From Candidatus Eiseniibacteriota bacterium (lineage in GTDB: Bacteria > Eisenbacteria > RBG-16-71-46), in assembly GCA_031370785.1 (NCBI GenBank), contig JANMQY010000090.1:1-64000 (forward strand): a DNA stretch of 64,000 bases, in the 5' to 3' direction. This document shows positions 1-33,750 of this stretch, piece after piece (within the stretch, counting starts at the first letter, position 1; the number at the start of each line of letters is the position of its first letter). The notes beneath the pieces are model-generated. The model was not told the DNA's origin. It searched no databases and worked only from the letters and a program-made list of their open reading frames with translations. Both the position numbers and the translations under genes were made by a program.

Positions 1-977
1 TCGCTTCGCGAGCGCTGCCCGCGGCGCGGCACTACGCCGAAATCGCGCCTCACGTGCCGCACGCACTCCACATGCCATCCCACATCTTCACGCGCCTCGG
101 AATGTGGGACGAGTCCATCGGCTCGAACCTGGCTGCCGCCCAGGCCAGCCGGGAGTATTCCGCCACCCACTATGGTGGGGCCGTGTACTACGACGCCGTG
201 CACGCGTGGGATTACCTCGAGTACGCCTACCTGCAGAAGGCCCAGGATCAGAAGGCGCGCGCGATTCGCGACAGCATCGTGGCCATCCGACGCGTCAGCC
301 AACAGACGCAGTCGTTCTACTATGCGCTCACCGCGGTGCCGGCTCGCTACGCGCTCGAGCACCACGCGTGGAGTGACGCGGCCGCGCTCGAGCTCCCCTC
401 GGGCTGGACCTGGAAGCGCTATCCGTGGACCGAGGCAACCACGCAGTTCGCTCGAGCGCTCGGCGGCGCGCGCTCGGGTCGGCCTGAGATTGCGCGCGAG
501 GCGATCGCGCGCCTCGCGGCAATTCGCGACGGCATCGTCAATCCCGGTCTTTTCCATTGGGCCGCGCAGGTGGAGGCGCAGCGCCGCACCGCCGAGGCAT
601 GGCTCTTCCTGGCCGAGGGTCATCAAGCCGTGGCACTGGACGGCATGCGCGCTGCCGCAGCGCTCGAGGACTCGACCGAGAAGCGACCCGTGACGCCTGG
701 GGCGGTGTTGCCCGCGCGCGAACTCCTCGGAGACATGCTGCTCGAGACGGATCACCCAACGGAGGCGCTGGCTTCATACGAAGCGGTGCTGCGCGATTCG
801 CCCGGGCGATTCAATGCGCTCTCGGGAGCGTCACGCGCCGCCCTGGCATGTCGACGCCGTGCGGTGGCCAGGCGATACGCCGCCGCGCTGCTCGCGCTCG
901 CGAAGGATGGGGACGGTGATCGTCCCGAGGTCGCGGAAGCGCGGCGTATCGCCAGGGGCGAGACGAGCGCGCGCTAA
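1..977 (+). CDS. TPR-repeat protein, 5'-truncated by the window edge
   Basis: Frame is open from position 3 (ASRALPAARHYAEIAPHVPHALHMPSHIF). Helical TPR-like repeats, e.g. ARELLGDMLLETDHPTEALASYEAVL. Confidence 0.75.
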   Translation, partial: ASRALPAARHYAEIAPHVPHALHMPSHIFTRLGMWDESIGSNLAAAQASREYSATHYGGAVYYDAVHAWDYLEYAYLQKAQDQKARAIRDSIVAIRRVSQQTQSFYYALTAVPARYALEHHAWSDAAALELPSGWTWKRYPWTEATTQFARALGGARSGRPEIAREAIARLAAIRDGIVNPGLFHWAAQVEAQRRTAEAWLFLAEGHQAVALDGMRAAAALEDSTEKRPVTPGAVLPARELLGDMLLETDHPTEALASYEAVLRDSPGRFNALSGASRAALACRRRAVARRYAAALLALAKDGDGDRPEVAEARRIARGETSAR

Positions 978-1078
978 GGGGCCGACGCCACCACATCCTT
1001 TCCAACCATCTGTCGGACCGCGCCGTCCAAAGCACGGGTCGTTCACTCGTGGAGGCCGCCCTGTCCTATCGCACGCTC

Positions 1079-2698
1079 ATGCACCTGACGCTCGTCCTCG
1101 CCATCGCGCTCGCGCTTCCGGCCGCGGCACGGGCCGATCGCATCTCGCCCGACTGGGTGCCGAAGTGGCGCGCCGATCTGGCCTTCGCGGCCGACAGTCT
1201 GCCCCGTTCCCACCCGAACTTCTTCCACGCCGTCACGCGCGAAACCTACCTCGGCGCTCTCGACTCCTTGAGCGCACGGGTTCCCACTCTCGATCATCAT
1301 CAGATCGTGGTCGAGCTTGCCCGCATCATGGCGCTCGTCCACGACGGCCACACGCGCCTGAGCTTCCCCTTCGACAGCGCGGCCGGGTTCTTCATGGGCC
1401 ACACGAAGACCGCGGCGCCCAGGGTCCCCGGCCTCGTCTTTCGCCACTATCCGGTTCGCTTCGGCCTGTTTGCCGACACCCTGTTCGTGATCCGCGCCGA
1501 CTCCGCACACCGCGAGCTGCTCGGCGGACGCGTCGTGAGCCTGGGGGCCATGACCGCCGCTGAGGCCATGACGGCCGTCGAGCCCACGGTCCAACGCGAC
1601 AACGAGAGTCAGGTCCGCGACCTGTTGCCCACGTGGCTCGTCTGCCCCGAGATCCTCCACGCACGCGGCGTCAACGCCGACATGGAGCACATGCCTATCG
1701 TGGTCGAGCACGACGGCGTCCAGATGACCGCGAGCCTCGCGCCCGTGCCGCCGAAGGCAAGCCTCCGCTGGCTCGAAGGTCGAGCGGCAGGTCCGCCGCC
1801 GCTGCGCGATCGCTACCCGGGGCGCAACCACTGGTTCACGGCCCTCCCCGGGACGCACACGATCTATGCGCGCTACCGCGAGGTGGTGGACGATCCCAGA
1901 GAATCGGTGGCCGAGTTTGCGGATTCGCTGTTCGCGGTGATCGAGCGATCGCATGCGGACCGGCTCGTCCTCGATCTGCGCGGCAACGTCGGCGGCAACG
2001 GATTCCTCAATCGACCTTTGGTCCAGCACCTGATCCGCGCCCAGTGGCTCTGGCGACCCGGCGGCCTGTGGGCGCTGATCGATCGCGCCACGTTCTCCGC
2101 GGCGGTGATGATGACTGCGGACCTCGAAATGAGAACGCCGACCCTGCTGGTCGGCGAGATGACGGGCGGGCACCCGAACTCCTACGGCGACTCTCGCAAG
2201 GTGATGTTGCCGAACAGTGGCATTACGGTGCGCGTGTCGAGCCTCTACTGGCAGCTCACCGGTCCGCAGGATCCGCGCGAAGGGATCACGCCGCACGTTC
2301 CGGTCACGATGCACTTCAGCGACTGGCGCTCGAACCGCGATCCGGCGCTCGACGCCGCGCTTTCGCGCAGTGGAACGGCGACGAGCCTCACTGGCTCGTG
2401 GAGCGGCGAGATTGGCTATCAATCCGCGCGGCTGCCGCTGCGGCTCGACCTCGTACAGAAGGGGGTGAAGTGGGAGGGACGCGTGAACCTGCCCGACGCG
2501 GAGCTCACAAACGCGCCGCTAGCGGAGGTGCGCGTGATGGGCGACAGGATCGCCGCGCGCTGGATGACCGGCGATGAGGCCTGGACGCTCTCGGCACGGC
2601 CCGCAGGTGAGCGCCTGGTGGGGATCGTGCACTACCACGGCCTGGACTTCCCGGTCGTGCTCGAGCGGAGCCGGGCCATTCAGGCGACCGCACCCTAG
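1079..2698 (+). CDS. Secreted S41-family peptidase-like protein
   Basis: Signal peptide MHLTLVLAIALALPAAARA; S41-type motifs DGHT, LVLDLRGNVGG, TFSAA, LVGEMTGG and GITPHV. Alternative GTG start at 1049. Confidence 0.7.
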   Translation: MHLTLVLAIALALPAAARADRISPDWVPKWRADLAFAADSLPRSHPNFFHAVTRETYLGALDSLSARVPTLDHHQIVVELARIMALVHDGHTRLSFPFDSAAGFFMGHTKTAAPRVPGLVFRHYPVRFGLFADTLFVIRADSAHRELLGGRVVSLGAMTAAEAMTAVEPTVQRDNESQVRDLLPTWLVCPEILHARGVNADMEHMPIVVEHDGVQMTASLAPVPPKASLRWLEGRAAGPPPLRDRYPGRNHWFTALPGTHTIYARYREVVDDPRESVAEFADSLFAVIERSHADRLVLDLRGNVGGNGFLNRPLVQHLIRAQWLWRPGGLWALIDRATFSAAVMMTADLEMRTPTLLVGEMTGGHPNSYGDSRKVMLPNSGITVRVSSLYWQLTGPQDPREGITPHVPVTMHFSDWRSNRDPALDAALSRSGTATSLTGSWSGEIGYQSARLPLRLDLVQKGVKWEGRVNLPDAELTNAPLAEVRVMGDRIAARWMTGDEAWTLSARPAGERLVGIVHYHGLDFPVVLERSRAIQATAP

Positions 2699-2746
2699 GC
2701 CCGGCGCTGCCGAAGGCAAGTGCTACGGCCTGGCGTCAGGTGCAGA

Positions 2747-3223
2747 TCACTTCTTGGCCCAGAACCCGATTGCGACCCCACCCGGCGCGGCGACGATCGC
2801 GATCCATCCCATGCCGCCCGGAAGCTGATCCGGAGGAAACATCCCGGTTGCGCCGGCCGCGAGCGCCTTTGAATACGTCGCTTGAATGTTCGCGACCTCG
2901 CAATAGGGAATTGTTCCTGGGACCTCGGGCGGATTGTTGGCTCGAATCCCTCCTCCGGTGCCATTTGCAAACTGCCACATGTGGTAAGGACCTGCCGGCG
3001 TCGGCATGGCCTCTCCAAACTTCCAGCCAAGCACCTTCTGGCACCACGCTCGAGTCGCAAGCGGGTCCGCGCTCGCGAGCTCCGTGTGCGTGATGACTCC
3101 AGGGCGGAGTTTGGGTGCGGCGGCCTTCCGAGACGATGCCACCACACGCTTCGAACGCCGCGTCGTCGACCGCTTCTTTGCGACTTTCTTCGCTCTCTTC
3201 TTTACAGCCTTTCGCTTGGCCAT
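2747..3223 (-). CDS. VOC/glyoxalase family protein with Lys/Arg-rich N-terminal tail
   Basis: ITHTELASADP...GWKF, PYCEVANIQATYSKALAAGA and GMGWIAIVAAPGGVAIGFW. AAGGAGG RBS just upstream of ATG at 3223. Confidence 0.8.
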   Translation of the reverse strand: MAKRKAVKKRAKKVAKKRSTTRRSKRVVASSRKAAAPKLRPGVITHTELASADPLATRAWCQKVLGWKFGEAMPTPAGPYHMWQFANGTGGGIRANNPPEVPGTIPYCEVANIQATYSKALAAGATGMFPPDQLPGGMGWIAIVAAPGGVAIGFWAKK

Positions 3224-3239
3224 ACGATCCTCCTTGTCT

Positions 3240-3394
3240 GAATGCGGAAACTTCGAGAACAAGCACAATTCAAGCACAGTCAGCGGCTGAGAGCGCCGAT
3301 GCGCGACGCGCCCCGAAGCCATAGCTGTTTGCGAGATTGGTGCCGAAGGTGGGGGTCGAACCCACACGAGGCTTGAGCCTCACGGGATTTTGAG
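3240..3394. repeat. Direct repeat copy 1 (att-like): 3' half of tRNA-Leu plus 98-bp downstream arm
   Basis: Aligns without gaps to 17013-17167 at offset 13773. The tRNA part (3338-3394) has 1 mismatch in 57; the arm part (3240-3337) has 14 mismatches in 98 by hand count. Confidence 0.95.
3338..3394 (-). pseudogene. tRNA-Leu(CAA) 3' fragment, anticodon loop to CCA
   Basis: Reverse complement is CTCAAAATCCCGTGAGGCTCAAGCCTCGTGTGGGTTCGACCCCCACCTTCGGCACCA. The 5' acceptor strand and D arm are absent. Confidence 0.92.
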
Positions 3395-3515
3395 AACGAG
3401 GTCCGAGGTGAGAGCACAGGCCAACATCGGGCACAACCGACCACACGCGGCCATCATAGCCGAATGCGATGGTGACCGGTCCGCCGCGTAGAAACCGATC
3501 AATTCATTTGGTTCG

Positions 3516-3532
3516 AGCACAGAAGAAGCACA
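3516..3532. repeat. AGCACA-N5-AGCACA tandem motif (putative integrase arm-type site)
   Basis: GAGCACAGAAGAAGCACAGTC. Same hexamer and 11-bp spacing as at 3262-3278 and 17035-17051. Confidence 0.6.
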
Positions 3533-3632
3533 GTCCACCACTGCACCGAGCCGCAAAGGCGACACCGCGGCTTTCACGGGTCCTCCCGGCCGCTTGCGAC
3601 GCGCGGTCCGGCGACCCCGACGCCTCGCTAGT

Positions 3633-3783
3633 GACAAGCCCATCGAGGTGGATGAAGAGGGCGTGATCCTGTGCGGGCACCGGTGCCTGGCTTGCAGCGC
3701 AGGTCCTCGGCATGGAGCGGGTGCCGGTCATCCAGCACGCGCACCTCGATGCGGCTCGGAAGCGCGAGTACCGGCTCGCCGAC
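3633..3783 (+). pseudogene. Frameshifted ParB/Srx N-terminal domain remnant
   Basis: Removing one C at about 3681 gives DKPIEVDEEGVILCGHGAWLAAQVLGMERVPVIQHAHLDAARKREYRLAD, which matches the ParB-N pattern PIxVDExGVIxxGHGRxxAAxxLG...VPV...YRLADN. Confidence 0.75.
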
Positions 3784-3836
3784 TTTGCGCATCACGCAAG
3801 ATCGCCTTCAGGCGTCTCATGCAGTAGATTTCCATC

Positions 3837-5084
3837 GTGGATCGGCAGACGGTCGAGTTGAGCGCGCTGGCTTTTCAGGCCTTGGTGACTGGGCTTCTCG
3901 CCCTTGTCTATTGGGGGCTCTGGCGGCAACAGCGGCGATCCTACTTTGCCACGTGGGCCGGAGCGTGGGCGGCATTCGTAGTACGCCTCGGGTTCATCTC
4001 AGCCTTCGTCGTCTCACGCCGAGAGATCTGGCTGTTCGCTCACCAGGTTGCCACTTCAGTCACCGCACTGCTCCTCCTGTGGGCGGCATTGCAGTTTTCG
4101 CGGGGTGCGCGCTGGCGTGCCCGCTACCTGTGGGTCGGGGTAGTGGCGATCGCGTGGGCCTATCTCGTCATCTTCGTGATCAGAGACATGCGCGTTGCCG
4201 GGATCTCGGCCTCGGTGCTACTCGCCGGGGTAACACTCTGGACGGGAAGCGTGTTCTGGAGGCATCGCCGGCAGGGGGATACAGTCGGCGCCACCGTGCT
4301 GTCATGGACCTTCATTCTATGGGGCCTGCACCACCTCGACTACCCGCTCCTGCGTCCACTGGGCAGTGGTGCACTGTACGGTGTCTTCGCGGATGTAGTG
4401 TTCATCGTCGCCGCGACTGTTGGCACATTGTTTCTCGTGCTGGGCGACGGGCGCAGGATGCTGGAAGCTCGCAGCCACCAGCTCGAACAGCTCACGCGCC
4501 TATTGTTGCGTGCGCAGGAGGATGAGCGGCGGGCGATTGCACGTGAACTCCATGACGAGGCGGGACAGGTGCTGACGGCAGTCAAGATCGAGCTTGACCT
4601 GGAGGGTCGCTCCAAGGCGGGCGAGATGGTCGGGCGGGCTCTGGCCCAGGTGCGTGATCTGAGCAACCTGCTTCGTCCGAGGGCGCTCGATGATCTTGGG
4701 CTGCTCCCGGCATTGCGTGGCCTGGTGGATGATTTCGCTCGCCGCACTCGCATCGACGCAAGCCTCGACTGCAGACATCCGCTTCACCCGCTGAGAGACG
4801 ACTTGCAGGTCGTAATCTATCGCGTGGTGCAAGAAGCGCTCACCAACGTGGCGCGCCACGCCGACGCTCATCAAGTACGGGTTCGGCTCGAGGTGGAGAA
4901 CGATTGCGTTCGTCTCTCGGTGCAGGACGACGGCCGCGGTGTTGCGGGTGAGCCCACGCCCCACCTCGGCCTCCTCGGTATTCGCGAGCGCGTCACTTCT
5001 CTGGGCGGAACCCTGGTGGTTGATGGAGCGGCGGGGCGGGGCTTCCTCATCGAGGCCGTGATCCCTGCGGAGGTCCTCGCATGA
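3837..5084 (+). CDS. Membrane sensor histidine kinase, HisKA_3 (NarX/UhpB type)
   Basis: About 7 TM segments; H-box QEDERRAIARELHDEAGQ; N-box YRVVQEALTNVARHA; G1 VQDDGRG; LGLLGIRER. Confidence 0.92.
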   Translation: MDRQTVELSALAFQALVTGLLALVYWGLWRQQRRSYFATWAGAWAAFVVRLGFISAFVVSRREIWLFAHQVATSVTALLLLWAALQFSRGARWRARYLWVGVVAIAWAYLVIFVIRDMRVAGISASVLLAGVTLWTGSVFWRHRRQGDTVGATVLSWTFILWGLHHLDYPLLRPLGSGALYGVFADVVFIVAATVGTLFLVLGDGRRMLEARSHQLEQLTRLLLRAQEDERRAIARELHDEAGQVLTAVKIELDLEGRSKAGEMVGRALAQVRDLSNLLRPRALDDLGLLPALRGLVDDFARRTRIDASLDCRHPLHPLRDDLQVVIYRVVQEALTNVARHADAHQVRVRLEVENDCVRLSVQDDGRGVAGEPTPHLGLLGIRERVTSLGGTLVVDGAAGRGFLIEAVIPAEVLA

Positions 5085-5737
5085 GCCAGGCGCACTCCAC
5101 TCGCGTGTTTCTCGCCGACGACCACAATCTGGTGCGGGCGGGAGTGAGAAGAATCCTCGAGGCTCAGCCAGGGATCGAGGTGGTCGGAGAGGCATGCGAC
5201 GGAAGAGAAGTTCTGCGTGCGCTCGGTCAAAGTCCCGTTGATGTTCTGGTGCTCGACCTCACGATGCCGGAAATGGACGGGTTCGAGACCCTCGCGCGCG
5301 CCAAGGCGCTTCGCCCATCGATCAAGGTTCTGGTGCTGACGATGCACACTAGCCCGGAGTACATCGCGCGCGCGCTACGCCTGGGCGCCGATGGGTACCT
5401 GCTCAAGGACTCCGCCGTGCTGGATCTGGTGGCCGGGATCGACGCAGTGATGGCGGGCCGCGCGTACTACAGCCCCGCGGTCCAGAGCGAGATCGGACAA
5501 TTTCTGCGTGTAGGCTCGACTCCGAGCCGCCCGCTCGACTTGCTCACCGAGCGCGAGCGCGAAGTGCTTCGGCTGGTGGCACAGGGGCTGCCTACCAAGG
5601 AGATCGCATCTCGGCTCAGCATCAGTCCCCGGACGGTGGACACGCACCGGGCCAATCTGATGAGGAAGCTCGATATCCGCTCCGTTGCCCTCCTCACGCA
5701 AGTCGCGCTTCGCGAAGGCATCCTCGAATCTCCGTAG
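5081..5737 (+). CDS. NarL/LuxR-family response regulator
   Basis: LADDHNLVR, VLDLTMP, YLLKD and HTH LTEREREVLRLVAQG...TVDTHRANLMRKL. ATGA overlap with the kinase. Confidence 0.95.
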   Translation: MSQAHSTRVFLADDHNLVRAGVRRILEAQPGIEVVGEACDGREVLRALGQSPVDVLVLDLTMPEMDGFETLARAKALRPSIKVLVLTMHTSPEYIARALRLGADGYLLKDSAVLDLVAGIDAVMAGRAYYSPAVQSEIGQFLRVGSTPSRPLDLLTEREREVLRLVAQGLPTKEIASRLSISPRTVDTHRANLMRKLDIRSVALLTQVALREGILESP

Positions 5738-5966
5738 TACTACCGATTCCGCCTAGGCATTCATGCGCATGGCGGCCGCGGCGCCGAAATTGTCATATCC
5801 ATTCGTGCGCCGGCGGGCTCGGGATTCGAGCCTCGTTTGTTGCGGCAGGCCGGCCGTGGTTCCGGCCGGGTGATCACTCCTCGCATCGGCGGGCAGCCAG
5901 TGTCCATGCGTCATGCCGTTTGCGAGCACGGTGCCGCTGATCCGGACCCTTTCGCGTGAGGTCGGC

Positions 5967-7238
5967 ATGGTCGGAATCGAATCGCTGCGCCTGTTGTCGA
6001 TCAGCCACCGCAGTGCGGCGCTGGCCGATCTCGAACGCATGGCGCTGCCGGCCACCATTCAGACGAAACTTTGCGGGACCATGCGGGAGCTCGAACTCCG
6101 GGCAGTGGTGCTCTGCACCTGCAACCGAACCGAGTTGTACTGGTGCTCTCGCGGACCGGAGAGCGACGCGTCGGCGCAAGCGGCGTTGATGGCATGCGCT
6201 TCGCTGCAAGTCGTGCCGCCCCCGGAAAGCTTCACCCAACGGACAGGTCTCGCGGTCGCCGCTCACTTGTTTCGCGTCGCTGCTGGGCTCGAATCCCTGG
6301 TCGTTGGCGAAGCCGAGATACTGGGGCAGGTTCGCGAGGCGATCGAGGCTGCTGAGGGTGAAGCCGGAGCGGGCCCCTTCCTGGCGGATCTTTTCCGCGC
6401 AGCGCTCCGCTGCGGTGGAAGGGTCCGAAGCGAAACCCAGATCGGAACCGGCGCGCTCTCGGTCGCCTCCGCCGCCGTGCAATTGCTCGCACGCGTACAC
6501 CAGGACTTCGCGAACCTCACCGTCGTCGTAATCGGGGCGGGTGTCACCGGTCTCAAGGTTGCCCGGCACCTGAATGCCATGCGCGTCGGCCGGCTGGTGA
6601 TCGTCAACCGGACTCTTCCGCGAGCCGAAGAAGCGGCCGCCGAATTTTCCGCTACGGCCGCCCGGCTGGAGGATCTTCCCCACTGGATGGCGCATGCCCA
6701 CGCGATGATCGCCGCTGCACAGGTCGAGCGCCCGGTCGTCACCCCCGAAATGCTGAGCGGCGTACGATCCGGCAATCGCGAACGCCCGCTTCTGCTGATC
6801 GATCTGTCGCTGCCACGCGCCATCGATTCCAGCTGCGCTGCGGTTCCAGGCGTGGCCCTGCACGATCTCTCCGGACTCGAACAGGTTGTCGAGCACAACC
6901 GCGCGCGACGTGAGTGTGAGGTTCCACACGTCGAGAAGGTGATCGAGCACGAGCTGGGGATTTTCCAACGGCAGGTACGCGAGTCGATGGCCCGCCCGTT
7001 GGTGGCCGAGCTACGCCGTCGCGCGGATGCGATTCGGCGGGAAGAAATCGCGCGCACGCTTCGCGAGGGCGAGTTCGATGCGCCAACCCTGGACCATCTG
7101 ACGCAGCGCCTGGTGGATCGGCTGCTCCATGCACCGAGCCTGGCGTTGCGAAGCGGTGAGCTCGCACTCGGCCCTCCGCAGACGCGGTACGTGAGGCTGC
7201 TGTTCGGCCTCGAAGACGACGAGGCGGGGGCCGGGTGA
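5967..7238 (+). CDS. hemA: Glutamyl-tRNA reductase
   Basis: LCTCNRTELY (catalytic Cys), HLFRVAAGLESLVVGEAEILGQV, GAG dinucleotide motif, LIDLSLPR. GAGG RBS before ATG 5967; the ORF track start is 5913. Confidence 0.95.
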   Translation: MVGIESLRLLSISHRSAALADLERMALPATIQTKLCGTMRELELRAVVLCTCNRTELYWCSRGPESDASAQAALMACASLQVVPPPESFTQRTGLAVAAHLFRVAAGLESLVVGEAEILGQVREAIEAAEGEAGAGPFLADLFRAALRCGGRVRSETQIGTGALSVASAAVQLLARVHQDFANLTVVVIGAGVTGLKVARHLNAMRVGRLVIVNRTLPRAEEAAAEFSATAARLEDLPHWMAHAHAMIAAAQVERPVVTPEMLSGVRSGNRERPLLLIDLSLPRAIDSSCAAVPGVALHDLSGLEQVVEHNRARRECEVPHVEKVIEHELGIFQRQVRESMARPLVAELRRRADAIRREEIARTLREGEFDAPTLDHLTQRLVDRLLHAPSLALRSGELALGPPQTRYVRLLFGLEDDEAGAG

Positions 7239-8173
7239 TCCGCATCGGGACGCGCTCCAGCGCGCTCGCGCGCTGGCAGACCGACGAGGTTCTTCGGCTG
7301 TGGCGCTTGCTGAGCCCCGGGCTCGAGTTCGAAGTCGTCGAGCTGAGCACCGCTGGCGACGAACAGCCCGAAGCTCCTCTGGAGCTCATGGAGGGGATCG
7401 GCTTCTTCACCTCGACGATCGAGCGCGCGCTGTTGGAGCATCGCATCGAGGTTGCGGTCCACAGTTACAAGGATCTGCCCGTGACGACAACCACCGGCCT
7501 CGTGGTTGCAGCAGTGCCAGCACGCGGTCCGGTGGAGGATGTGCTGTGCTCGCGCGACCACACCGCACTCGTAGCGTTGCCTCGTGGCGCACGCGTCGGC
7601 ACCTCGAGCCTGCGGCGGACCGCGCAGCTTCGGGCATCGCGCCCGGACCTCGAGTACCTGCCCTTGCGCGGCAACGTCGGAACGCGACTGTCGCGATTGA
7701 GGTGGGGGGATCTGGATGCGGTGGTCCTGGCCAGGGCGGGCCTCGAGCGGCTGGGCCTTGGCGACCGGGCCACCGAAGTGTTTTCGATCGAGCGAATGCT
7801 GACGGCACCGGCGCAGGGCGCGCTGGCGATTCAAGTCCGCGAGGACGACGAGCTGCTTCGTCGGGCGCTCGCCGGGATCGAGCACGAGCCCACCCGTCGC
7901 GCGGTCGAGGCCGAGCGATCTGTGCTGCACGCACTGCGCGGAGGCTGCTCGGTTCCGGTAGGCGCATTCGCGCAGGCGAACGACGCGCGGGTGTGTGTGG
8001 ATGCGGGCGTGTTCGCTCCGGCGGGTGACCGCCCGCTCCGCGTGCAGGTGGAAGGCGTTGACCCGGCCGCGACTGGCGCCGAGGCGGCGCGGCGACTTCT
8101 CGAGGACGGTGCGTGGGAGATCCTGGCCGAGCTCGAGCGCCAGCCACGCCTCCAATGGGAGAGGGGCGCATGA
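7235..8173 (+). CDS. hemC: Hydroxymethylbilane synthase
   Basis: IRIGTRSSALARWQ, AVHSYKD, VGTSSLRR, LRGNVGTRL and GGCSVP (cofactor Cys). Confidence 0.97.
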   Translation: MIRIGTRSSALARWQTDEVLRLWRLLSPGLEFEVVELSTAGDEQPEAPLELMEGIGFFTSTIERALLEHRIEVAVHSYKDLPVTTTTGLVVAAVPARGPVEDVLCSRDHTALVALPRGARVGTSSLRRTAQLRASRPDLEYLPLRGNVGTRLSRLRWGDLDAVVLARAGLERLGLGDRATEVFSIERMLTAPAQGALAIQVREDDELLRRALAGIEHEPTRRAVEAERSVLHALRGGCSVPVGAFAQANDARVCVDAGVFAPAGDRPLRVQVEGVDPAATGAEAARRLLEDGAWEILAELERQPRLQWERGA

Positions 8174-8937
8174 GATCGCAGCCGCTGCGCGTGGCGGTGA
8201 CTCGCGACGAGCCATCCGACGGAGCGCTCAGCGACGCGCTTCGGCGAGCGGGGCTCGAGCCCATCGGCTGCGCCGTGCTGTGCGAGGCTCCCGCGCCCGA
8301 GCCCGAGCGGCTCGCGCGCGCCGCGCGCGAGCTGGGGCGCTATGACTGGCTTGTGGTCGCGAGCGTGCGCGCAATCGTCGCGCTCAGCGCGGCACGAGAC
8401 GGCGAACCATGGCCGGCGGGCCCGCGGACCGCGGCAGTCGGAGCCAGAACTGCCGCGGCGCTCATTGCGCACGGCGCCGCCACGCCGCTGCTCGCACCAA
8501 GGGAGGGAGCACAGCCGCTGATCACCGCGTTGCGCGAAGCGGATGACTGGACGCAGCGGCGCGTGTTGCTCCCGCGCGCCCGGGAAGGCAGTCACGAATT
8601 GGGCATCGCGTTGCGGAACTTCGGCGCCAGGGTCGAGGAGGTGGTCGCCTACTGCACGGTCGAGCGCGCCGCGGACGAGATCCTCGCGGCCTGGAACTCC
8701 GCTTCGGCGGACGCCGTGGTCGTGGCCAGTCCATCGGCTGCGCGCTCGTTGGTTCGCGCCGTGGGCCCGGACACCCTGAGACGGCTCGATTCTGTCGTCG
8801 CGATCGGCTCAACGACGGCAATGGCGCTCGTGAGCCTCGGTGTTCAAGCGGTCGTACCGCCGCGAGCGGACTTCGAGTCCGTGGCTGAATTGCTTAGCGA
8901 AAGAACCCCCTCCACCAGAAGGACAGACCAGCCATGA
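8170..8937 (+). CDS. hemD: Uroporphyrinogen-III synthase
   Basis: [41 protein letters not shown]; lies between hemC and hemB with ATGA overlaps. Confidence 0.9.
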
Positions 8938-9935
8938 GCTTTCCCGTTCACCGCGGTCGCCGTCTGCGCCGCAGCGCAGGCCTAAGGGCGATGGCGCAGG
9001 AAGTCCACATCGTTCCGGCGCAACTCGTCGCTCCTCTCTTCGTGCACGAGGGCGATATCGCGCGGCAGCCCATTGCATCGCTTCCCGGCCATGCGCGGCT
9101 CACGCCCGATGCCGCGGCGGACGAGGCGGCTGCGCTGGCGTCCCTGGGTATCGGCTCGGTGCTGCTATTTGGCATTCCGCGTACGAAAACGTCGGACGGC
9201 AGCGCTGCGTGGCTCGACGACGGCATCGTTCCGCGCGCCATTCGCGCCATCAAGCGCCGAGTACCGGCAATGGTGGTGTGGGCGGACGTGTGCCTGTGCG
9301 AGTACACCGACCACGGGCACTGCGGCGTCTTCCATGACGGGGAAGTCGACAATGACGCGACATTGCCTTTGCTTGCCCGCGCTGCGGTCGCCTATGCACG
9401 CGCCGGCGCAGACGTGGTTGCGCCCTCCGACATGATGGACGGCAGAGTGGCCGCGATCCGAACCGGACTGAACCAGGCGAAATTCGCCGGCACGGCGATC
9501 GTGTCCTACGCCGTCAAGTACGCCTCCGCGTTCTATGGTCCATTCCGCGAAGCCGCCGGATCGACTCCGCAACACGGCGACCGGCGGGGCTACCAGATGG
9601 ATCCGCCCAATGTGCGCGAAGCGATACGCGAGGCGACGGCCGATGTCGAGGAGGGCGCCGACGCGCTGATCGTAAAACCCGCCATGCCCTATCTCGACGT
9701 GTTGCGTGCCGTGCGCGACGCGGTCAACGTGCCGATCGCGGCGTATCAGGTCTCGGGGGAGTATTCGATGATCCACGCCGCCGCCGAGCGCGGCTGGCTC
9801 GATCCCGAGCGCGCGATGTGGGAAACAACACTGGGAATCCGCCGCGCGGGAGCGGACCTCGTGATCAGCTACTTCGCGCGGGCGCTCGCCGAGCGCATGA
9901 GCGAGCGCGGCGCGGTCGCCGAGGCCCGGCGATGA
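8934..9935 (+). CDS. hemB: Porphobilinogen synthase
   Basis: [14 protein letters not shown]n site, [33 protein letters not shown]. Confidence 0.98.
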
Positions 9936-11245
9936 TGTTGCGCGCGACCAGGGTCGCGGGGGCAACTCACGCGGCGCTCTTCGAGCGCGCAGCGCGCGTC
10001 ACCCCCGGCGGCGTCCACTCGCCGGTCCGTGCGTTCCGCGCCGTGGGCGCGCCGCCGATCGCACTGGTCCGAGCCGCGGGCGCCCGTGTGTGGGACGCCG
10101 AGGGCCGTGAGTACGTGGACTGGATCGGCGCATGGGGGCCCGCGTTGCTCGGCCATGCCCATCCCGGCGTGACAGCCGCCGTGCGTGCCGCTGCGGAGCG
10201 CGGACTCCTGTTCGGCCTTGCGTCTCCGGGCGAAGTCGTCCTCGCCGAGCGCGTCACCGCGCGCACCCCGGGCTGCGAGATGGTGCGGTTTGTCGCCACC
10301 GGGACCGAGGCGGCGATGAGCGCGGTGCGCATTGCGCGCGCCGCGACCGGACGAGAGGCGATCCTCAAGTTTGCCGGGTGCTATCACGGCCATGGCGACG
10401 CGTTTCTCATCTGCGCTGGTTCGGGAGCGGCGACGTTCGGCGTGCCAGATTCCCCTGGTGTCACCCGGTCGGTCGCACATGACACGCTCGTCGCGCGTTA
10501 TGGCGACATCGACGATGTGGACCGGTGTCTGCGAGAGGCGAACGGCACGGTCGCGGCCATGATCGTCGAACCGGTGGCGGGAAACATGGGGTGCGTTCCA
10601 CCGCCGCCGGGATTCCTTGCGGCTTTGCGCGAGCGCTGCGACCGGGCAGGTGCAGTACTCATATTCGACGAAGTGATCAGCGGCCTTCGTCTGGGCCCTG
10701 GCGGCGCCGCGGAACGTTTCGGCGTCAAACCGGACCTGATTCTGCTGGGCAAGGTGCTGGGCGGTGGCATGCCGCTCGCCGCCTTTGGCGGAAGGCGCGC
10801 GCTGATGGAGCGCGTGGCCCCCTCGGGTCCGGTCTACCAGGCGGGCACCTATGCGGCGCATCCACTATCGGTGGCCGCGGGCCTCGCGGTGCTCGACGCA
10901 CTGGACGCCGACCCGGGCCTGTACGCGCGACTCGAAGCGGCCGGAGAGCGAATTGCTCAGGCGCTGAACGAGGCCGCGGTGCGCGCGCGTGTGCCGCTCC
11001 AGGTGCAACGCGTCGGCTCGATGTGGACGCCGTTCTTCAGCTCCACCCCGGTGCGGTCATGGGACGACGCAAAGGCGGTCGATACCCGGTGTCACGCAGC
11101 ATTCTTCCGCGGCATGCTCAGCCGCGGCATCCTGCTCCCGCCTTCGGCATTCGAGTGCGCGTTCCTGTCCGCCGCGCACGGCGAAGCGGAACTCTCACGA
11201 ACTCTCGAGGCCGCCCGCGCCGCGCTTGCGGAGGTGGACGCGTGA
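9932..11245 (+). CDS. hemL: Glutamate-1-semialdehyde 2,1-aminomutase
   Basis: [44 protein letters not shown] (PLP Lys), VYQAGT. Confidence 0.97.
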
Positions 11246-12270
11246 ACGATCGCTTTCTGCGCGCCTGCCGGCGTGAGCCCGTGGATCATCCGCCACTCTG
11301 GATCATGCGGCAGGCGGGGCGCTACCTGCCGGAGTATCGAGAGCTGCGCGCGCGAGTCGACTTCCTCACGCTGTGTAGGACTCCCGAGCTTGCGGTGGAG
11401 GCGAGCCTGCAGCCCATCCGCCGATTTGGGCTCGACGCGGCGATCATTTTCTCGGACATCCTGCTGCCGCTCGAAGCGCTCGGGGTGGAGCTCGCGTTCG
11501 ATCCAGGTCCGCGCCTTTCACGCGCGGTGCGAGATCGAGCTGGCGTCGAGGCGCTGCTGCGGCGGCCGATCGGGGAGGTGACGCCGTACGTCGGGGAGGC
11601 CGTGGCGCTGTTGCGACGCGAGCTCGACGGACGCGTCCCTGTGATCGGCTTCTGCGGCGCGCCGTTCACGCTCGCCGCCTATCTCGCCGAAGGCGAAAGT
11701 CGCGGCGGCTTCGGCGCGGTCAAGGCCATGATGTATCGCGAACCCGATACGCTGACGCGGCTGCTCGATCTGCTCGCGGACCTGCTCGCGGATTCGCTCA
11801 ACTTGCAGATCCGTTCAGGCGCCCAGGCGGTGCAGATCTTCGACTCGTGGGCGGGCATCCTGAGTCCCGCCGACTATCGTGCGTTCGCGCTACCGGCCGT
11901 TCAGCGCGTCGTGCGCGGGCTGAAGCGCGAAGGCGTGCCGGTGATCTACTTCGCGCTGGACGCCGGACACGTGCTCGAGGATGCCGCCTCGACGGGAGCC
12001 GACGTGCTCGGCGTGTGCTGGCGCACGCCACTCGACGAGGCGCGCCGCCGCACCGGGGGACGGGTGGCTCTTCAGGGCAATCTGGATCCGCATGCGCTCT
12101 TCGGCTCACCCGACACCGTTCGTCGGCGTGCGCTCGAGGTGCTCGACGCGGCGGGCGAGGTGCCCGGACACATCATGAATCTCGGCCACGGGATTCTTCC
12201 CGAGACTCCGATCGAGTCGGTGGAAGCGCTGGTCGAGTCGGTGGCGTCTCGCGCGGGACGTGTGGCATGA
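11242..12270 (+). CDS. hemE: Uroporphyrinogen decarboxylase
   Basis: WIMRQAGRYLPEYR, DAAIIFSDIL, GAPFTLAAY, QIFDSW, LQGNLDP, NLGHGI. GTG start overlaps the hemL stop. Confidence 0.97.
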   Translation: MNDRFLRACRREPVDHPPLWIMRQAGRYLPEYRELRARVDFLTLCRTPELAVEASLQPIRRFGLDAAIIFSDILLPLEALGVELAFDPGPRLSRAVRDRAGVEALLRRPIGEVTPYVGEAVALLRRELDGRVPVIGFCGAPFTLAAYLAEGESRGGFGAVKAMMYREPDTLTRLLDLLADLLADSLNLQIRSGAQAVQIFDSWAGILSPADYRAFALPAVQRVVRGLKREGVPVIYFALDAGHVLEDAASTGADVLGVCWRTPLDEARRRTGGRVALQGNLDPHALFGSPDTVRRRALEVLDAAGEVPGHIMNLGHGILPETPIESVEALVESVASRAGRVA

Positions 12271-13670
12271 GCTCCCGGACCCCCGAGCTTCGCACCGAGG
12301 AACTGCTCCGACGTTACGACCGGCCGGGCCCACGCTACACCTCGTACCCGACGGCAAACGAGTTTCACGATGGCTTCACCGAGACGCACTATCGCGAGCG
12401 ACTGGAGCAGGCGGACGCCAAGGCCGGCGCGCCGCTCTCGCTCTACGCGCACCTTCCATTCTGCGAGGAGCGATGTCTTTACTGTGCGTGTAACGTGATC
12501 ATCACGCCGCACCGCGAAGTGGCCACGCCATATCTCGACCATCTGCTTCTGGAGATTGATCTGCTCGCGCGTCAGTTGCCGAACCGGCGACGAGTCTCGC
12601 AGATGCACTGGGGTGGCGGCACGCCCACGTATTACGCGCCCGCCGAACTGGAGCGCCTGTTCCGCGCGTTCGCCGATCGCTTCACGTTCACACCCGACGC
12701 CGAGATTGGTATCGAGGTGGACCCGCGCGTGACGACGCCCGGGCACGTCCGGGCGCTCCGCCAGCTGGGCTTCAACCGCATCTCGATGGGCGTCCAGGAT
12801 TTCGCACCCGAGGTGCAGAAGGCGGTTCATCGGGAGCAGAGCTTTCAGCTCACACGCTCACTAGTGGACCTCGCTCGCGCGGAGGGCTACAGGTCGGTCA
12901 ATCTCGATCTCATCTATGGCCTGCCCTACCAGACCATCGCAGGCTTTACGCGAACGTTAAACCAGGTTCTCACCATCCGCCCGGATCGTGTGGCGGTGTA
13001 CTCGTTTGCCTACGTGCCCTGGATCAAGGCGCACATGAAGCACCTGCCCGAGGCCTCGCTCCCCGACGCGTCGCTCAAACTGCAGCTGCTGGGTGTCACC
13101 ATCGACGCGTTCACGGGCGCCGGTTATCGGCAGATCGGGATGGATCACTTCGCGCTTCCGGATGACGAACTCTCGCGCGCGGTGGAATCGCGCACGTTGC
13201 ACCGGAACTTCATGGGCTACACCGTGCAGAGCACTCGCGACATGCTGGGCGTCGGAATCTCGTCCATTGGCGACGTGCAGGGCGCGTTCGTTCAGAACGT
13301 GAAGAAGTTGCCGACATACTACGAGGCATTGAAGGCCGGGCGCTTTCCGGTGGAGCGAGGCTACGCCCTCGATGAGGACGATGTCGTGCGCCGCCACATC
13401 ATCACGCAGCTGATGTGCAACTTTCATCTCGACGTGCGAGAGGTCGAGGACCTGTTCGATCTCGATTTCTCCGAGGCATTCGCGACCGAGCTGGCCGAGC
13501 TGAGCGGCCCGGATTCTCCAGTCGGCCACGGACTGTTACGGATCACCCCCGATGCCCTGGAAGTCACTCTCGCCGGACGACTCTTCATCCGTAACGTGTG
13601 CATGGTGTTCGATCGCTACCTGCGCGCCAAGATCGGTCAGGGAAAGCCGATCTTCAGCCGAACGGTGTGA
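12267..13670 (+). CDS. hemN: Oxygen-independent coproporphyrinogen III oxidase (radical SAM)
   Basis: GPRYTSYPTA, HLPFCEERCLYCAC, HWGGGTP, IGMDHFA, LHRNFMGY, FSRTV. Confidence 0.97.
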   Translation: MSSRTPELRTEELLRRYDRPGPRYTSYPTANEFHDGFTETHYRERLEQADAKAGAPLSLYAHLPFCEERCLYCACNVIITPHREVATPYLDHLLLEIDLLARQLPNRRRVSQMHWGGGTPTYYAPAELERLFRAFADRFTFTPDAEIGIEVDPRVTTPGHVRALRQLGFNRISMGVQDFAPEVQKAVHREQSFQLTRSLVDLARAEGYRSVNLDLIYGLPYQTIAGFTRTLNQVLTIRPDRVAVYSFAYVPWIKAHMKHLPEASLPDASLKLQLLGVTIDAFTGAGYRQIGMDHFALPDDELSRAVESRTLHRNFMGYTVQSTRDMLGVGISSIGDVQGAFVQNVKKLPTYYEALKAGRFPVERGYALDEDDVVRRHIITQLMCNFHLDVREVEDLFDLDFSEAFATELAELSGPDSPVGHGLLRITPDALEVTLAGRLFIRNVCMVFDRYLRAKIGQGKPIFSRTV

Positions 13671-13674
13671 AGCG

Positions 13675-15087
13675 ATGAAAGTGGTCGTCCTCGGTGGTGG
13701 CATCACGGGGTTGAGCGCCGCTTTCCATATTCAGGAACACGCGCGTCGGACGGGTGCCGCAGTCGAGCTCACGGTGCTCGAGGGCGAGGAGCACGCGGGC
13801 GGCCACGTCCGGACGCTGCGCGACTCGGATTTCATCGTGGAGACTGGGCCCAACGGATTCCTCGATCGCGAGCGTGAATCTCATGCGCGGGATCTGGTGC
13901 ACCAGTTGGGACTTGGCCTGCACCTGCGCGAGTCGCGACCTGCGGCTCGTCGCCGCTTCGTATTTCATCGCGGGCGTCTGCGCCTCGTGCCGACTTCGCC
14001 GCTGTCCGTTCTCTGGTCCGATGCGCTCTCGATCCCGGCCAGGCTGCGGCTGCTGCTCGAGCCCTGGGCTCGCTCAGCCCCACAAGGCGTCGATGAGAGC
14101 GTCTTCGACTTTGCCAGGCGCCGGCTCGGTCGCGAGCCGGCCGAGGTACTTGTCGACACCGCGGTTTCCGGCATTTCAGCCGGGGACAGCCGGCGTCTTT
14201 CGCTGGCATCAGCGTTTCCGCTCATGTTGGAAATGGAGCGCGAGAGCGGTGGCCTGATCCGGGCGATGGTCGCGCGGCATCGGCAGCGTCCCGCACAGCT
14301 CGTGACGTTGGAAGGAGGCATGCAGACGCTGATCGACGAGTTGAGCGCACGCCTGGGTGACAGGCTGCGCACTGGATGCGCCGTCAGCGCCATCGGGCGC
14401 ATCGCCAATCAGTGGAGCCTCAGGCTTGTGGACGGCGGCCGTCTCGAAGCCGATCGCCTCGTCCTCGCAATCCCGGCTGCGCGCGCAGCGACACTGGTCG
14501 AAGCCTTCGATCCCGCGCTTGCCCGAGCCCTGGGCGCGATTCCCTTTGCCGGGCTCGCAATGGTGGCGCTTGCATTCCGTCAGGCCGACGCGGGTCCGCT
14601 CGATGGCTATGGCTATCTCGTCCCGCGCAGCGAAGACTTCGAGACACTCGGCGTCGTCTGGGAGTCCTCGCTGTTCGAAGGCCGCGCGCCTCGTGGCACC
14701 GTTCTGCTGCGCGCCATGCTCGGGGGCGCGCTTCGGCCCGAGGTCGTCGAGCGTTCGGAGTCCGCATTGATCGAGTGCGCGCGCCGCGAGATCGCGAAAG
14801 TGATGGGAGTCTCGACGGCTCCACTCAAGACCTGGGTCCGGCGCTTTCCCGGTGCGATCGCCCAGTATGAGCTTGGCCACGCGGCACGCATCGAGCGGGT
14901 GCGCGCGCTGGCTGCGGCGCATCCGCATCTGGTGCTGTGCGGCACATCTTATGATGGCGTGTCATTCAACAGCGCCGTGGCCTCCGCCGTGAATGCCGTC
15001 CGCAGCATCATGCAGGGGCCGCTTCATCCAACTGTTGGATATGCGCGCGAGGAGCCGCCACATGTCGCGTCATTCGACAGCAGGTGA
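13675..15087 (+). CDS. hemY: FAD-dependent protoporphyrinogen oxidase, HemY type
   Basis: VVLGGGITGLSAA, ETGPNGFL, GYGYLVPR, AIAQYELGH. Confidence 0.92.
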   Translation: MKVVVLGGGITGLSAAFHIQEHARRTGAAVELTVLEGEEHAGGHVRTLRDSDFIVETGPNGFLDRERESHARDLVHQLGLGLHLRESRPAARRRFVFHRGRLRLVPTSPLSVLWSDALSIPARLRLLLEPWARSAPQGVDESVFDFARRRLGREPAEVLVDTAVSGISAGDSRRLSLASAFPLMLEMERESGGLIRAMVARHRQRPAQLVTLEGGMQTLIDELSARLGDRLRTGCAVSAIGRIANQWSLRLVDGGRLEADRLVLAIPAARAATLVEAFDPALARALGAIPFAGLAMVALAFRQADAGPLDGYGYLVPRSEDFETLGVVWESSLFEGRAPRGTVLLRAMLGGALRPEVVERSESALIECARREIAKVMGVSTAPLKTWVRRFPGAIAQYELGHAARIERVRALAAAHPHLVLCGTSYDGVSFNSAVASAVNAVRSIMQGPLHPTVGYAREEPPHVASFDSR

Positions 15088-15091
15088 GCGC

Positions 15092-16087
15092 ATGACGACG
15101 CGCCACGTAGTCCTTCTGACCTACGGCGAGCCACCGACACCATCGTTCCTGGAGCAGCTGCGCTATTCGTGGCGCATCCTGCTCGGGCTCACGCGATCGG
15201 TGGCTCCGATTCCTCTTGCACTGCTTCCCATCGTCGCCCTGTCGCGCGCGCGGTTCCGTCGGCAGCTCTGGAGCAGGGAACGCTACGGCTCCCCGCTCGA
15301 GCGCATCACGTGCGATCAGGCCGAGGGCGTTCGACTAGCGCTCGTGACACGATCGCCGGATGTGATGTGGAAGTTGCACGTGGCCTATGAGTTTCGGGAT
15401 CCATTGCTCATCCCGAAGCTCGAGTCTCTGCCTTCGAACGCAGCCATCGACATCGTGCCCATGTACGTCGCGGATTCGGCGTTCACGCATGAAATCTCCC
15501 GCCGAACGATCGGGGAATGGAAGCGCCTGGCGCAGGGCCGATCCGGGCCCGTTCGGGTGCTCCCAGCCCTCGATGAGGACGCCCTCGTCGAAGCATCCGC
15601 TCGTCACATCGAGCGACAGCTGGATGCGCGAGGCATCCGCGGACGCGAATGGGCGTTGGTACTGGCGGCGCATGGCACGTTGCTCGATCCTCCGCGCCCC
15701 ATGGAGACCGGTCGCGCGGCCACCGAACGTATCTGTCACGGCATCGCGCGGCGCCTCGAGGATCGATTCGGCACCATTGCGAACGGGTGGCTCAACCACG
15801 TGTACGGAGGACGATGGACCGTGCCTCCCGTCGAGGAGGCGCTGCAGCGGGTCGCCGGCGCTGGCTACCGGCGAGTGGTCTACTACCCGTTCGGATTCCT
15901 CGCAGACAATGCGGAAAGCGAGCTCGAAGGACGGATCGCCCTGAGGACGCAGCCCTGCCTCGAGGCGATCCACCTGCCGTGCCTCAATGCCGATCCGGAT
16001 TTCCTGGATATGCTTGCTGCGCACATCGCTGACTCGGTTGACTCACTCGAACGCCGGGTCCCCGACCCAACGCTGAGGTTTTCATGA
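15092..16087 (+). CDS. hemH: Ferrochelatase (divergent)
   Basis: VVLLTYGEP, GSPLERIT, VLAAHGT, YPFGFLADNAESELE, LPCLNADPDF; last enzyme of the operon. Confidence 0.85.
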   Translation: MTTRHVVLLTYGEPPTPSFLEQLRYSWRILLGLTRSVAPIPLALLPIVALSRARFRRQLWSRERYGSPLERITCDQAEGVRLALVTRSPDVMWKLHVAYEFRDPLLIPKLESLPSNAAIDIVPMYVADSAFTHEISRRTIGEWKRLAQGRSGPVRVLPALDEDALVEASARHIERQLDARGIRGREWALVLAAHGTLLDPPRPMETGRAATERICHGIARRLEDRFGTIANGWLNHVYGGRWTVPPVEEALQRVAGAGYRRVVYYPFGFLADNAESELEGRIALRTQPCLEAIHLPCLNADPDFLDMLAAHIADSVDSLERRVPDPTLRFS

Positions 16088-16602
16088 ATCGAACGGTCGT
16101 GGACGAAAACGCCAAGGCACTGGCTTTCCTGCGCATCTGCGTGGGCGTTCTCTTCCTGCTCTTTGGTCAGTACAAGGTATTCGGCACGCAGTTCACGCTT
16201 GGCGGTGGCTTTCAGCACTGGATCGGTCGTTTTCTCGAAGACGGTGCCTATCCTTTCATGGTGCCGATCCTGCGCGGGTTCGTACTGCCGCATGGAACTA
16301 CAATCGCGTTTCTCGTGGCGTACGGCGAGCTGGCCATCGGCCTCGCGCTAGTGCTCGGGTTGCTCGTGCGTATGGCGAGCGCGAGTGGCTGCGCTTACAT
16401 GCTGGCGCTGCTCTTTTCAGCCAACTACCCCGGCCCCCACGCTCGGCTCTGGCAATACTTCGGCGCCTCCCTTGATCACCTGGTGCTGGCGCTCTGCTTT
16501 GTCGCGCTCGGGATCGGGCAGGCCGAGAGGATCTGGTCCGTGAGCGCCTGGGCCTCCCGTCCGCAGCCGACGATCGAGATTGTTCGGCGAGTTGGCCCGT
16601 GA
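16084..16602 (+). CDS. DoxX family membrane protein
   Basis: LRICVGVLFLLFGQYK and YGELAIGLALVLG with hydrophobic helices. ATGA overlap with hemH. Confidence 0.85.
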   Translation: MNRTVVDENAKALAFLRICVGVLFLLFGQYKVFGTQFTLGGGFQHWIGRFLEDGAYPFMVPILRGFVLPHGTTIAFLVAYGELAIGLALVLGLLVRMASASGCAYMLALLFSANYPGPHARLWQYFGASLDHLVLALCFVALGIGQAERIWSVSAWASRPQPTIEIVRRVGP

Positions 16603-16629
16603 CATCGTTCAGACTGCAGGTCAACGGGT

Positions 16630-16925
16630 TCAGCGGCGCTCGAGAGACGCAAAACCCAGATTGTTGAGCACGCCCTCGTCCACCACCATGAGCGAATCGG
16701 GAGTGCGTGCACTCAGTTGGCGATACTCCTTCGCCACGGTCGCGAAGCTCGCGATGCTCACGCGGCGTGCCAGCGAGTCGGCGGCAGCCGAGCCGTGCAT
16801 GAGAACGGAAACTCAACATCGCGAGTCACCCCGTGAATCGTGAGCGAGCCACGCATGCGGTAGCCGTCGCCACTTTTGACGATCGATTTGCTGCGAAAGA
16901 GTGCGGTCGGGAATTCCTCGACCTC
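16630..16925 (-). pseudogene. Remnant of a YceI-like (plus TPR-like) gene
   Basis: EEFPTALFRSKSIVKSGDGYRMRGSLTIHGVTRDVEFPF resembles the YceI core. In another frame it is followed by AKEYRQLSARTPDSLMVVDEGVLNNLGF, a TPR-like helix. No start codon. Confidence 0.6.
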
Positions 16926-17012
16926 GGACGCGGATCTCTCGGAAGGCGTGCGCAAGGTCGCAGCAATGCGAAGCGCTGATCCGGGCACGTCGCGCACCGT
17001 CGCGCGCGTCGC

Positions 17013-17167
17013 GAATGCAGAAGATTCGATAACAAGCACAATTCGAGCACAATCGGCGGCTGATAGCGCTGATGCGCGACGCATACCGAAGCCGTAACTG
17101 TTTGCGAGATTGGTGCCGAAGGTGGGGGTCGAACCCACACGAGGTTTGAGCCTCACGGGATTTTGAG
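17013..17167. repeat. Direct repeat copy 2 (att-like)
   Basis: Partner of 3240-3394; contains AGCACA-N5-AGCACA at 17035-17051. Confidence 0.95.
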
Positions 17168-17199
17168 TCCCGCGCGTCTGCCAGTTCCGCCACTTCGGC
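17111..17199 (-). tRNA. tRNA-Leu(CAA)
   Basis: GCCGAAG/CTTCGGC acceptor stem, CGGGA-CTCAAAA-TCCCG anticodon arm, long variable arm, GTTCGA T loop, encoded CCA. Confidence 0.97.
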
Positions 17200-17211
17200 G
17201 AGCGGGAGTCG

Positions 17212-17240
17212 AAACTAGCAAGAAGGTTGGACCCCAGCAA
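17212..17240 (-). promoter_or_regulatory. Putative sigma70 promoter of tRNA-Leu
   Basis: Minus strand TTGCTG-N17-TAGTTT with extended TG, 12 nt before the tRNA. Confidence 0.5.
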
Positions 17241-17477
17241 ACCCACCGCGCTTCTCACTCGGGGCGACGTTCGTCTACGAGCTCGGGACGTAGAAGATTC
17301 CCCATCGTGTACCTGCGAGGCTAGGCTCCTTCTCCGCCGCTCCTCAAGTGCTTTTCTGCTAGTGTCGCGCGCTGTTCTCGCTCGACGAGGAGGTGCCGTG
17401 ATGTGTCCCGCACAGAATGACCTGAGCGACCGTGCCCTAGGACCTCCACGGTTCCCGAATCCCTGGAGCCCGACGCC

Positions 17478-19607: not shown

Positions 19608-19756
19608 AACGGGGGGGTGCGCCGCTCGTCGCCCGCGAGAATTCGAACTCCTGTCCCGTCCTCTCGGGCACTACAATCGCGACGGCGCCATCGTAGACGT
19701 CATCTCGCGGTTCAGCCTCGCGCGCAGAAGTCCACACCTCAGCCATCGGAGGTTCC

Positions 19757-31915: not shown

Positions 31916-33750
<1,835 letters not shown>

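Follow-up and report, generated by a model that had tools for sequence, protein, structure and literature searches.

The tRNA-Leu(CAA) gene of this Eisenbacteria contig is followed by about 100 bases that recur, in diverged form, behind a partial copy of the same tRNA on the far side of a 13.6 kb gene block, which raises the question of what this arm is and how it came to stand twice in one locus. The window, that is the whole stretch of DNA analysed, covers the leading 64 kb of a contig 81 kb long, and its start is the contig end. The sequence-only reading had described 98 gap-free bases with about 14 mismatches, as against one in the 57 bases of tRNA. When the copies were realigned pairwise, 3240-3337 and 17013-17110 differed at exactly 14 of 98 positions with zero gaps, and the tRNA cores (3338-3394 and 17111-17167) differed at 1 of 57. 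Outside these stretches, to the left of 3240 and 17013 and to the right of 3394 and 17167, similarity is at background level, and a within-genome blastn of the repeat (repeat family D1) gave an E value of 7e-27. The 57-bp core begins at the anticodon loop (CTCAAAA, 3394-3388), and tRNA fragments in relatives begin at the same place. From the tRNA outward, the locus is laid out as an attL-type end, 13.6 kb of cargo, an attI-like junction, and a seemingly older remnant whose far end lies off the contig:

17111-17199, minus strand: intact tRNA-Leu(CAA), the integration target, forming an attL-type end with the arm behind it (ARAGORN, Rfam)
17013-17110, minus strand: putative P'-type arm of the tRNA-proximal (heme) element, with an IHF-like CAA-N4-TTA at 17095-17104 and TGTGC-N6-TGTGC at 17036-17051 (roles assigned after the lambda att layout)
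3395-3532, minus strand: putative P-type arm of the heme element, with five imperfect repeats of 10-bp period at 3410-3459 and a repeat pair at 3517-3532
3338-3394, minus strand: 57-bp copy of the 3' part of the tRNA, the core of an internal attI-like junction (alignment)
3240-3337, minus strand: putative P'-type arm of the older, distal element, with a repeat pair at 3263-3278 and an IHF-like site with one change at 3322-3331 (alignment)

Considering that the assembly is metagenome-derived and consists of 147 contigs, the repeat could be an assembly artefact, a reading that we regard as almost inconceivable. One contig of metagenome run X2 covers 2233-4069 with 2 letters different, and with it the whole 3240-3532 junction, and one contig of run X1 covers 11683-17127; X1 is possibly the source sample, and both runs come from one study. 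Because these contigs span the junctions, the junctions are not a product of misassembly. The copies also differ at 15 positions, and the same junction type is present in other genomes, so that the earlier argument from divergence against misassembly holds.

To identify the arm, 60 relatives were queried with the tRNA plus arm, followed by all 88 other genomes of the family, and 60 stretches were fetched. In intact relatives, the strand opposite tRNA-Leu(CAA) carries an integrase gene whose stop lies some 15-20 bases away from the CCA end, and the modules are ordered primase, excisionase, integrase, pointing at the tRNA. The integrase end was seen behind the tRNA in G073, G098, G096, G008, G004, G088, and G005, PF00589 was confirmed in the proteins of G073, G098, and G015, and the best PHROG for the family integrase is phrog_1. 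Both window copies carry the integrase frame, share its C-terminal words, and stop at the same place, and neither reaches the catalytic tyrosine region. Judged by frame and stop, the arm of 98 bases represents the terminal part of a tyrosine-integrase gene, namely its last 27 codons and the stop. The remnants and their immediate neighbors are as follows:

16925-17097, plus strand: integrase 3' remnant (copy 2), about 56 codons and a TAA at 17095-17097, starting just past the catalytic-tyrosine region (tblastn)
3241-3324, plus strand: shorter remnant of the same integrase family (copy 1), the last 27 codons and a TAG stop in open frame (frame comparison)
About 16794-16928, minus strand: YceI fragment (PF04264, model positions 71-111 of 150) adjoining the integrase remnant and marking the deletion point (Pfam)
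2747-3223, minus strand: VOC/glyoxalase gene (PF00903), starting 16 bases behind arm 1 (Pfam)

The copy 2 remnant extends over about 186 bases and matches residues 382-447 of a relative's PF00589 integrase by tblastn (46% over about 70 residues, E 4e-5), and its DNA is 70-73% identical to that of relatives over 185-197 bases. Copy 1 retains about 98 bases of the gene, short of the catalytic part, so its abrupt end is the deletion point of copy 1. The sharp stop of homology in the sequence-only reading is therefore real in copy 1, but in copy 2 the integrase sequence runs on. Likewise, a YceI fragment does follow copy 2, but about 90 further integrase bases lie between it and the 98, whereas the ribosome-binding site claimed directly behind copy 1 is in place (AAGGAGG behind arm 1, ATG of the VOC gene at 3223-3221).

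Taken with the layout, these remnants make it highly probable that the arm is an integrase tail overlapping a likely attachment arm, and that the two copies mark two islands serially integrated at tRNA-Leu(CAA), each of which has lost its integrase. We consider it extremely improbable that the 98 bases are instead the host's tRNA-Leu(CAA) trailer, or a non-coding RNA, copied into the attP of an element. Related sequence does stand behind the tRNA in 7 of the best 29 relatives' loci in the unselected search, as this alternative would expect. However, when all loci with at least 90 bases downstream were taken, a set of 41 full tRNA-Leu(CAA) genes enriched by a second search (motif chance rate 1.4%), the arm was present behind 19 and absent at 22; these 22 have unrelated trailers and no family integrase behind them (0/22), and where the arm is present it runs into the integrase. 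The arm therefore derives from the element, as had been proposed, and its reading as the ordinary trailer of island-free relatives fails. An RNA or hairpin role for the arm was rejected as well, since neither an Rfam match nor stable folding was found, folding being no better than that of shuffles (z +0.4 to +1.5, both strands, both arms). A promoter and terminator scan gave hits at chance level only.

The arm is likely to be the attachment arm of the element as well, as its arrangement of candidate arm-type sites suggests. Across 30 aligned arms, two motifs are constant in sequence and spacing amid otherwise variable positions, CAA-N4-TTR, which overlaps the stop codon at about +7 to +16, and TGTGC-N6-TGTGC at about +60 to +75. 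The exact TGTGC-N6-TGTGC occurs three times in the 64-kb window (3263, 3517, and 17036), one per arm, against a chance mean of 0.14, and none of 100 shuffles reached three; the zero mismatches in the 10 TGTGC bases between the window arms are not significant alone (about 1.4 expected). The pair at 3517 lies beyond the core copy, about 138 bases off, and an equal distance was found at 17 of 21 fragment sites with enough sequence. The layout and spacing of the P arm are identical in G012, G014, G017, G066, G088, and G096. Based on position, conservation, and consensus, the TGTGC pairs are likely Int arm-type sites and CAA-N4-TTR, which resembles the IHF consensus, a likely IHF site; three PF00216 genes are present in the genome. 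By the same analogy, the five 10-bp repeats at 3410-3459 are likely excisionase sites. Int would bind the TGTGC pairs, IHF the CAA-N4-TTR, and excisionase the 10-bp repeats, as at lambda att. The available text on lambda attL and attR (PMC4111918) describes a comparable anatomy, in which an attP of about 240 bp has Int at arm-type sites, IHF on its P' side, and Xis on the P arm, and here the P-core-P' span is 3263-3532; in contrast with lambda as described there, the target here is a tRNA anticodon loop, the duplication is 57 bp, and the sites are predicted from sequence. With the arm sites placed inside the tail of the integrase gene, about 100 bases would persist once the integrase is lost, which explains their survival. 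We also considered a shared breakpoint of cargo capture near +90, as several arm-only sites end at 78-123, but the idea was dropped because the tail past +90 is poorly conserved even in intact genes.

How two arms came to stand in one locus can be pictured as follows. Integrases that use a tRNA anticodon-loop target are a recognised class, and the crossover by Int would take place within the 7-base anticodon loop. A first element would have integrated at the tRNA, its arm now lying at 3240-3337. A close relative would then have integrated into the regenerated tRNA and displaced the first, leaving the hybrid P-core-P' junction at 3240-3532, and later deletions would have removed each integrase while sparing the arms. 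The left element appears to be the older, judged from its shorter remnant and the one change in its IHF-like site. The second, earlier related element of the sequence-only reading is thereby borne out, given that a related, more decayed element starts at 3337 and that stacks at tRNA-Leu(CAA) recur in relatives.

A single element is also conceivable. Imprecise excision or homologous recombination would then have carried along a second copy of the tRNA end with its arm as the heme block was inserted or duplicated, and the arms would have diverged where they stand. The window arms are indeed mutually closest (75 of 88 matches, with any relative's arm at 69 or fewer), and the assembly holds no third core copy. 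The duplicated core, however, has its start precisely at the anticodon loop, with a complete P-type arm ahead of it that keeps the spacing of the family, and a core with 1/57 mismatches stands beside an arm with 14/98 that lie mostly at third positions and lack indels, which makes a single element quite improbable. By codon position, 8 of the 14 mismatches fall on third, 4 on second, and 2 on first positions (p about 0.06 by hand), an excess that weakly favors divergence within active, coding elements.

Apart from the VOC gene, likely the first cargo of the older element, the left flank holds:

3-2698, plus strand: TPR-like gene (truncated at the contig start) and S41-type gene (Pfam; left boundary outside the assembly)

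The VOC gene is found in 15 of 89 family genomes and is absent from the same-genus G001, and S41-type matches occur in 32 of 89, none of them in G001. Given this patchy distribution, the S41 and TPR genes possibly belong to the cargo of the older element. Neither these nor the VOC gene were found near tRNA-Leu(CAA) in the relatives' loci, and all three appear to be accessory genes. No third tRNA-Leu(CAA) fragment or further P arm was found in the assembly, in which the contig ends at the window start, and extension of the left flank from metagenomes by exact 24-mer gave no match. Joining contig C83 to the left end was rejected, because their 522-bp match, 87.5% identical, stems from paralogy rather than from overlapping contigs, and no core copy was found on C83. 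The two TPR-like copies (window 3-524 and G000:C83:106224-106745, G000 being the genome under study) are 88% identical and each cut by a contig end, and G112 has a homologue some 5 kb away from its hem operon.

Comparable stacks were found elsewhere. A strict P arm-core-P' arm junction is present at 5 of 21 scorable tRNA-fragment sites (G000 itself, G001, G017, G107, and G111), and the same junction type was recognised by eye in G012, G088, and G104. The other stacks carry unrelated cargo, such as transposases, kinases, and secreted repeat proteins. Beside intact integrases, primase and excisionase (phrog_66) were found in G073, G098, and G026, a PF13814 relaxase in G005, and a terminase in G014. 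A metagenome scan for the arm pattern returned 65 loci with 66 sites, at which the integrase is full-length (20), partial (16), reduced to the arm (16), cut by the contig end (11), or on a contig too short (3); these counts are not independent, as some loci are near-duplicates and at least two belong to other tRNAs. Among the informative metagenome sites, an intact integrase stands at 17 of 29 with a full tRNA versus 2 of 15 with a fragment, eight sites being cut too close to class. The lower share at fragment sites fits the rule, given in the available text of PMC7563491, that in tandem accretion the members distal from the target gene are the most decayed. The arm pattern had no match in viral contigs.

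Several loci show further arrangements. The smallest unit seen is one of 630 bases between two core-plus-arm copies (L125). At L046 (G015:C80), about 935 bases with a SpoIIE-type gene separate the arm from an intact integrase that has its own earlier stop; this locus is possibly an intermediate, with cargo entering between arm and integrase. Kin of the integrase (51-63%) stand at tRNA-Leu(TAA), tRNA-Met, and tRNA-SeC (L097, L100, and L101, in G001, G034, and G105), and in G001 the arm repeat of the intact integrase is the same as that of its integrase-less tRNA-Leu(CAA) stack.

As for the kind of array, the earlier suggestion was an integron-like stack, in which short standard units would be shuffled by one nearby recombinase. 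Like integrons, the locus stacks cargo units between repeated recombination sites, core-arm-cargo units recur with some as small as the 630-bp one, and the genome does hold an IntI-like tyrosine recombinase gene elsewhere (G000:C18:371-937, on a 2.5-kb contig), with a stop inside the match. Integrons are marked by attI/attC sites and IntI. In contrast, the arms here form no attC-like hairpin, their folding being at the level of shuffles (the above z scores), and no integrase or IntI adjoins the array; the adjacent tyrosine integrase that the earlier reading suggested searching for was not found here. The core is tRNA-derived, and the cargo is not a mostly single-gene cassette but 13.6 kb with 12 genes and one gene fragment and with regulators of its own. 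The arms are no purpose-built cassette ends, each being the tail of the integrase that its unit has lost. We therefore consider the integron-like reading very improbable and abandon it.

The array is instead CIME-like tandem accretion, a known phenomenon. The heme element has att sites at both ends (17013-17199 and 3338-3532), and the older element has its near end only in the assembly. Of recombination genes, 3' tails only are left, so neither element has a functional integrase, and no conjugation or mobilisation module was found by Pfam in the long ORFs of 3395-17012, where regulators, hem genes, DoxX, and YceI were the sole matches. The reference list of PMC5812530 names Pavlovic (2004) and Bellanger (2011) on CIMEs and site-specific accretion in streptococci. 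The streptococcal CIMEs described in the available part of PMC7563491 likewise keep att sites, lose recombination genes, and carry 1.2-13 kb of metabolic cargo, and in their arrays decay is likewise greatest in the member most distant from the target gene, with a hybrid attI between members. In contrast with that description, the host here is of another phylum, the likely parents are mostly integrase-excisionase-primase elements and not ICEs, both visible members are without integrase, and no helper is present in the assembled array. The tycheposons of Prochlorococcus, as far as the available text describes them (10.1101/2020.12.28.424599), also have a tyrosine integrase at a tRNA, alongside modules for excisionase and primase and metabolic cargo, and their islands have neighbors split by partial tRNA copies, with integrase fragments remaining. 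Here, the integrase, excisionase, and primase at a tRNA are present in intact relatives but not in the window remnants; unlike in tycheposons as described there, the integrase gene runs toward the tRNA and into the arm, the host group is another, and the likeness is one of layout. No paper on Eisenbacteria islands or heme was among the matches listed, and publication elsewhere is possible. While stacking itself is known, the case makes modest additions, namely an att anatomy, well sampled, for integrases that target tRNA-Leu(CAA) in an uncultured group, and a full heme pathway, missing from most of the family, inside att sites.

The locus is notable chiefly for this cargo, as the heme-synthesis set inside the att sites is the only one found in the genome, and most of the family is without one:

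3837-5737, plus strand: histidine kinase and LuxR-type response regulator (Pfam)
5913-16087, plus strand: hemA, C, D, B, L, E, N, Y/G (flavin amine oxidoreductase), and H, the full glutamyl-tRNA-to-heme set (Pfam)
16084-16602, plus strand: DoxX-family membrane protein (Pfam)

A tblastn search of the assembly found no second hemA, C, D, B, E, Y, or H, and elsewhere in the genome hemL and hemN have only paralogues at 29-38%. Of the 89 family genomes, 19 carry HemA and 20 carry HemB (7 of the 44 of high quality); neither was found in the same-genus G001, which is 88% complete. A tree built from HemC+HemB of 8 genomes places G000 beside G107 (support 1.0), apart from the G107 congeners G104, G105, and G015. 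Considering that the GyrA of G000 is closer to that of G001 (92% identical) than to those of the three genomes tested of genus g15 (83-86%), the pairing indicates sideways transfer, by which the hem operon was probably acquired. Of 10 hem loci fetched from relatives, 6 have the kinase/regulator pair beside the operon. A tRNA-Leu core or arm was found near the operon in none of the 10, several of which are cut by contig ends, and this counts against a generally island-borne hem operon.

Since the heme element keeps both ends, it might still be excised, though only with an incoming cognate Int and Xis, supplied in cis by accretion or in trans. A cognate integrase was not found in G000 at E 1e-15, versus matches in 48 of 88 other family genomes, and the assembly gave no match to excisionase; islands are often missing from metagenome-type assemblies. 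The search of G000 turned up just the window remnant and, at tRNA-Arg on C25, a match of 25-31%. No PF00589 match was found in window 1-20000, and those in G000 are two Xer-like, one IntI-like, and integrases at tRNA-Arg, the labels being interpretive. Joints of excision or of an empty site were not among the 15 joints listed in contigs of four runs, which is neutral, as contigs drop rare forms. A speculative and rather unlikely reading is that the integrase-less units are live, non-autonomous cassettes with arms under selection, excised and re-stacked by visiting Int and Xis and here moving a whole heme pathway, so as to turn heme-requiring Eisenbacteria into heme makers in one step. If helpers did mobilise such remnants, heme prototrophy would be a one-step transferable trait here.

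Elsewhere in the genome, two att-like ends lie near contig ends, one with a tRNA-Glu 3' fragment (G000:C6:6780-6950) and one with a tRNA-Leu(GAG) 3' fragment (G000:C27:7690-7850), each with a GCACA repeat pair about 120-130 bases off. Among the relatives, RecA (G015 and G107) and GyrA (G105 and G015) match in two pieces (L115, L116, L119, and L121), for which inteins or other insertions are possible. In the window itself, a 63-base GC-rich unit stands in three tandem copies at 32796-32991, and two related genes 1259 bases apart at 35909-37686 are 74-85% alike in patches, with a motif that presumably resembles that of glucose-1-phosphate adenylyltransferase.
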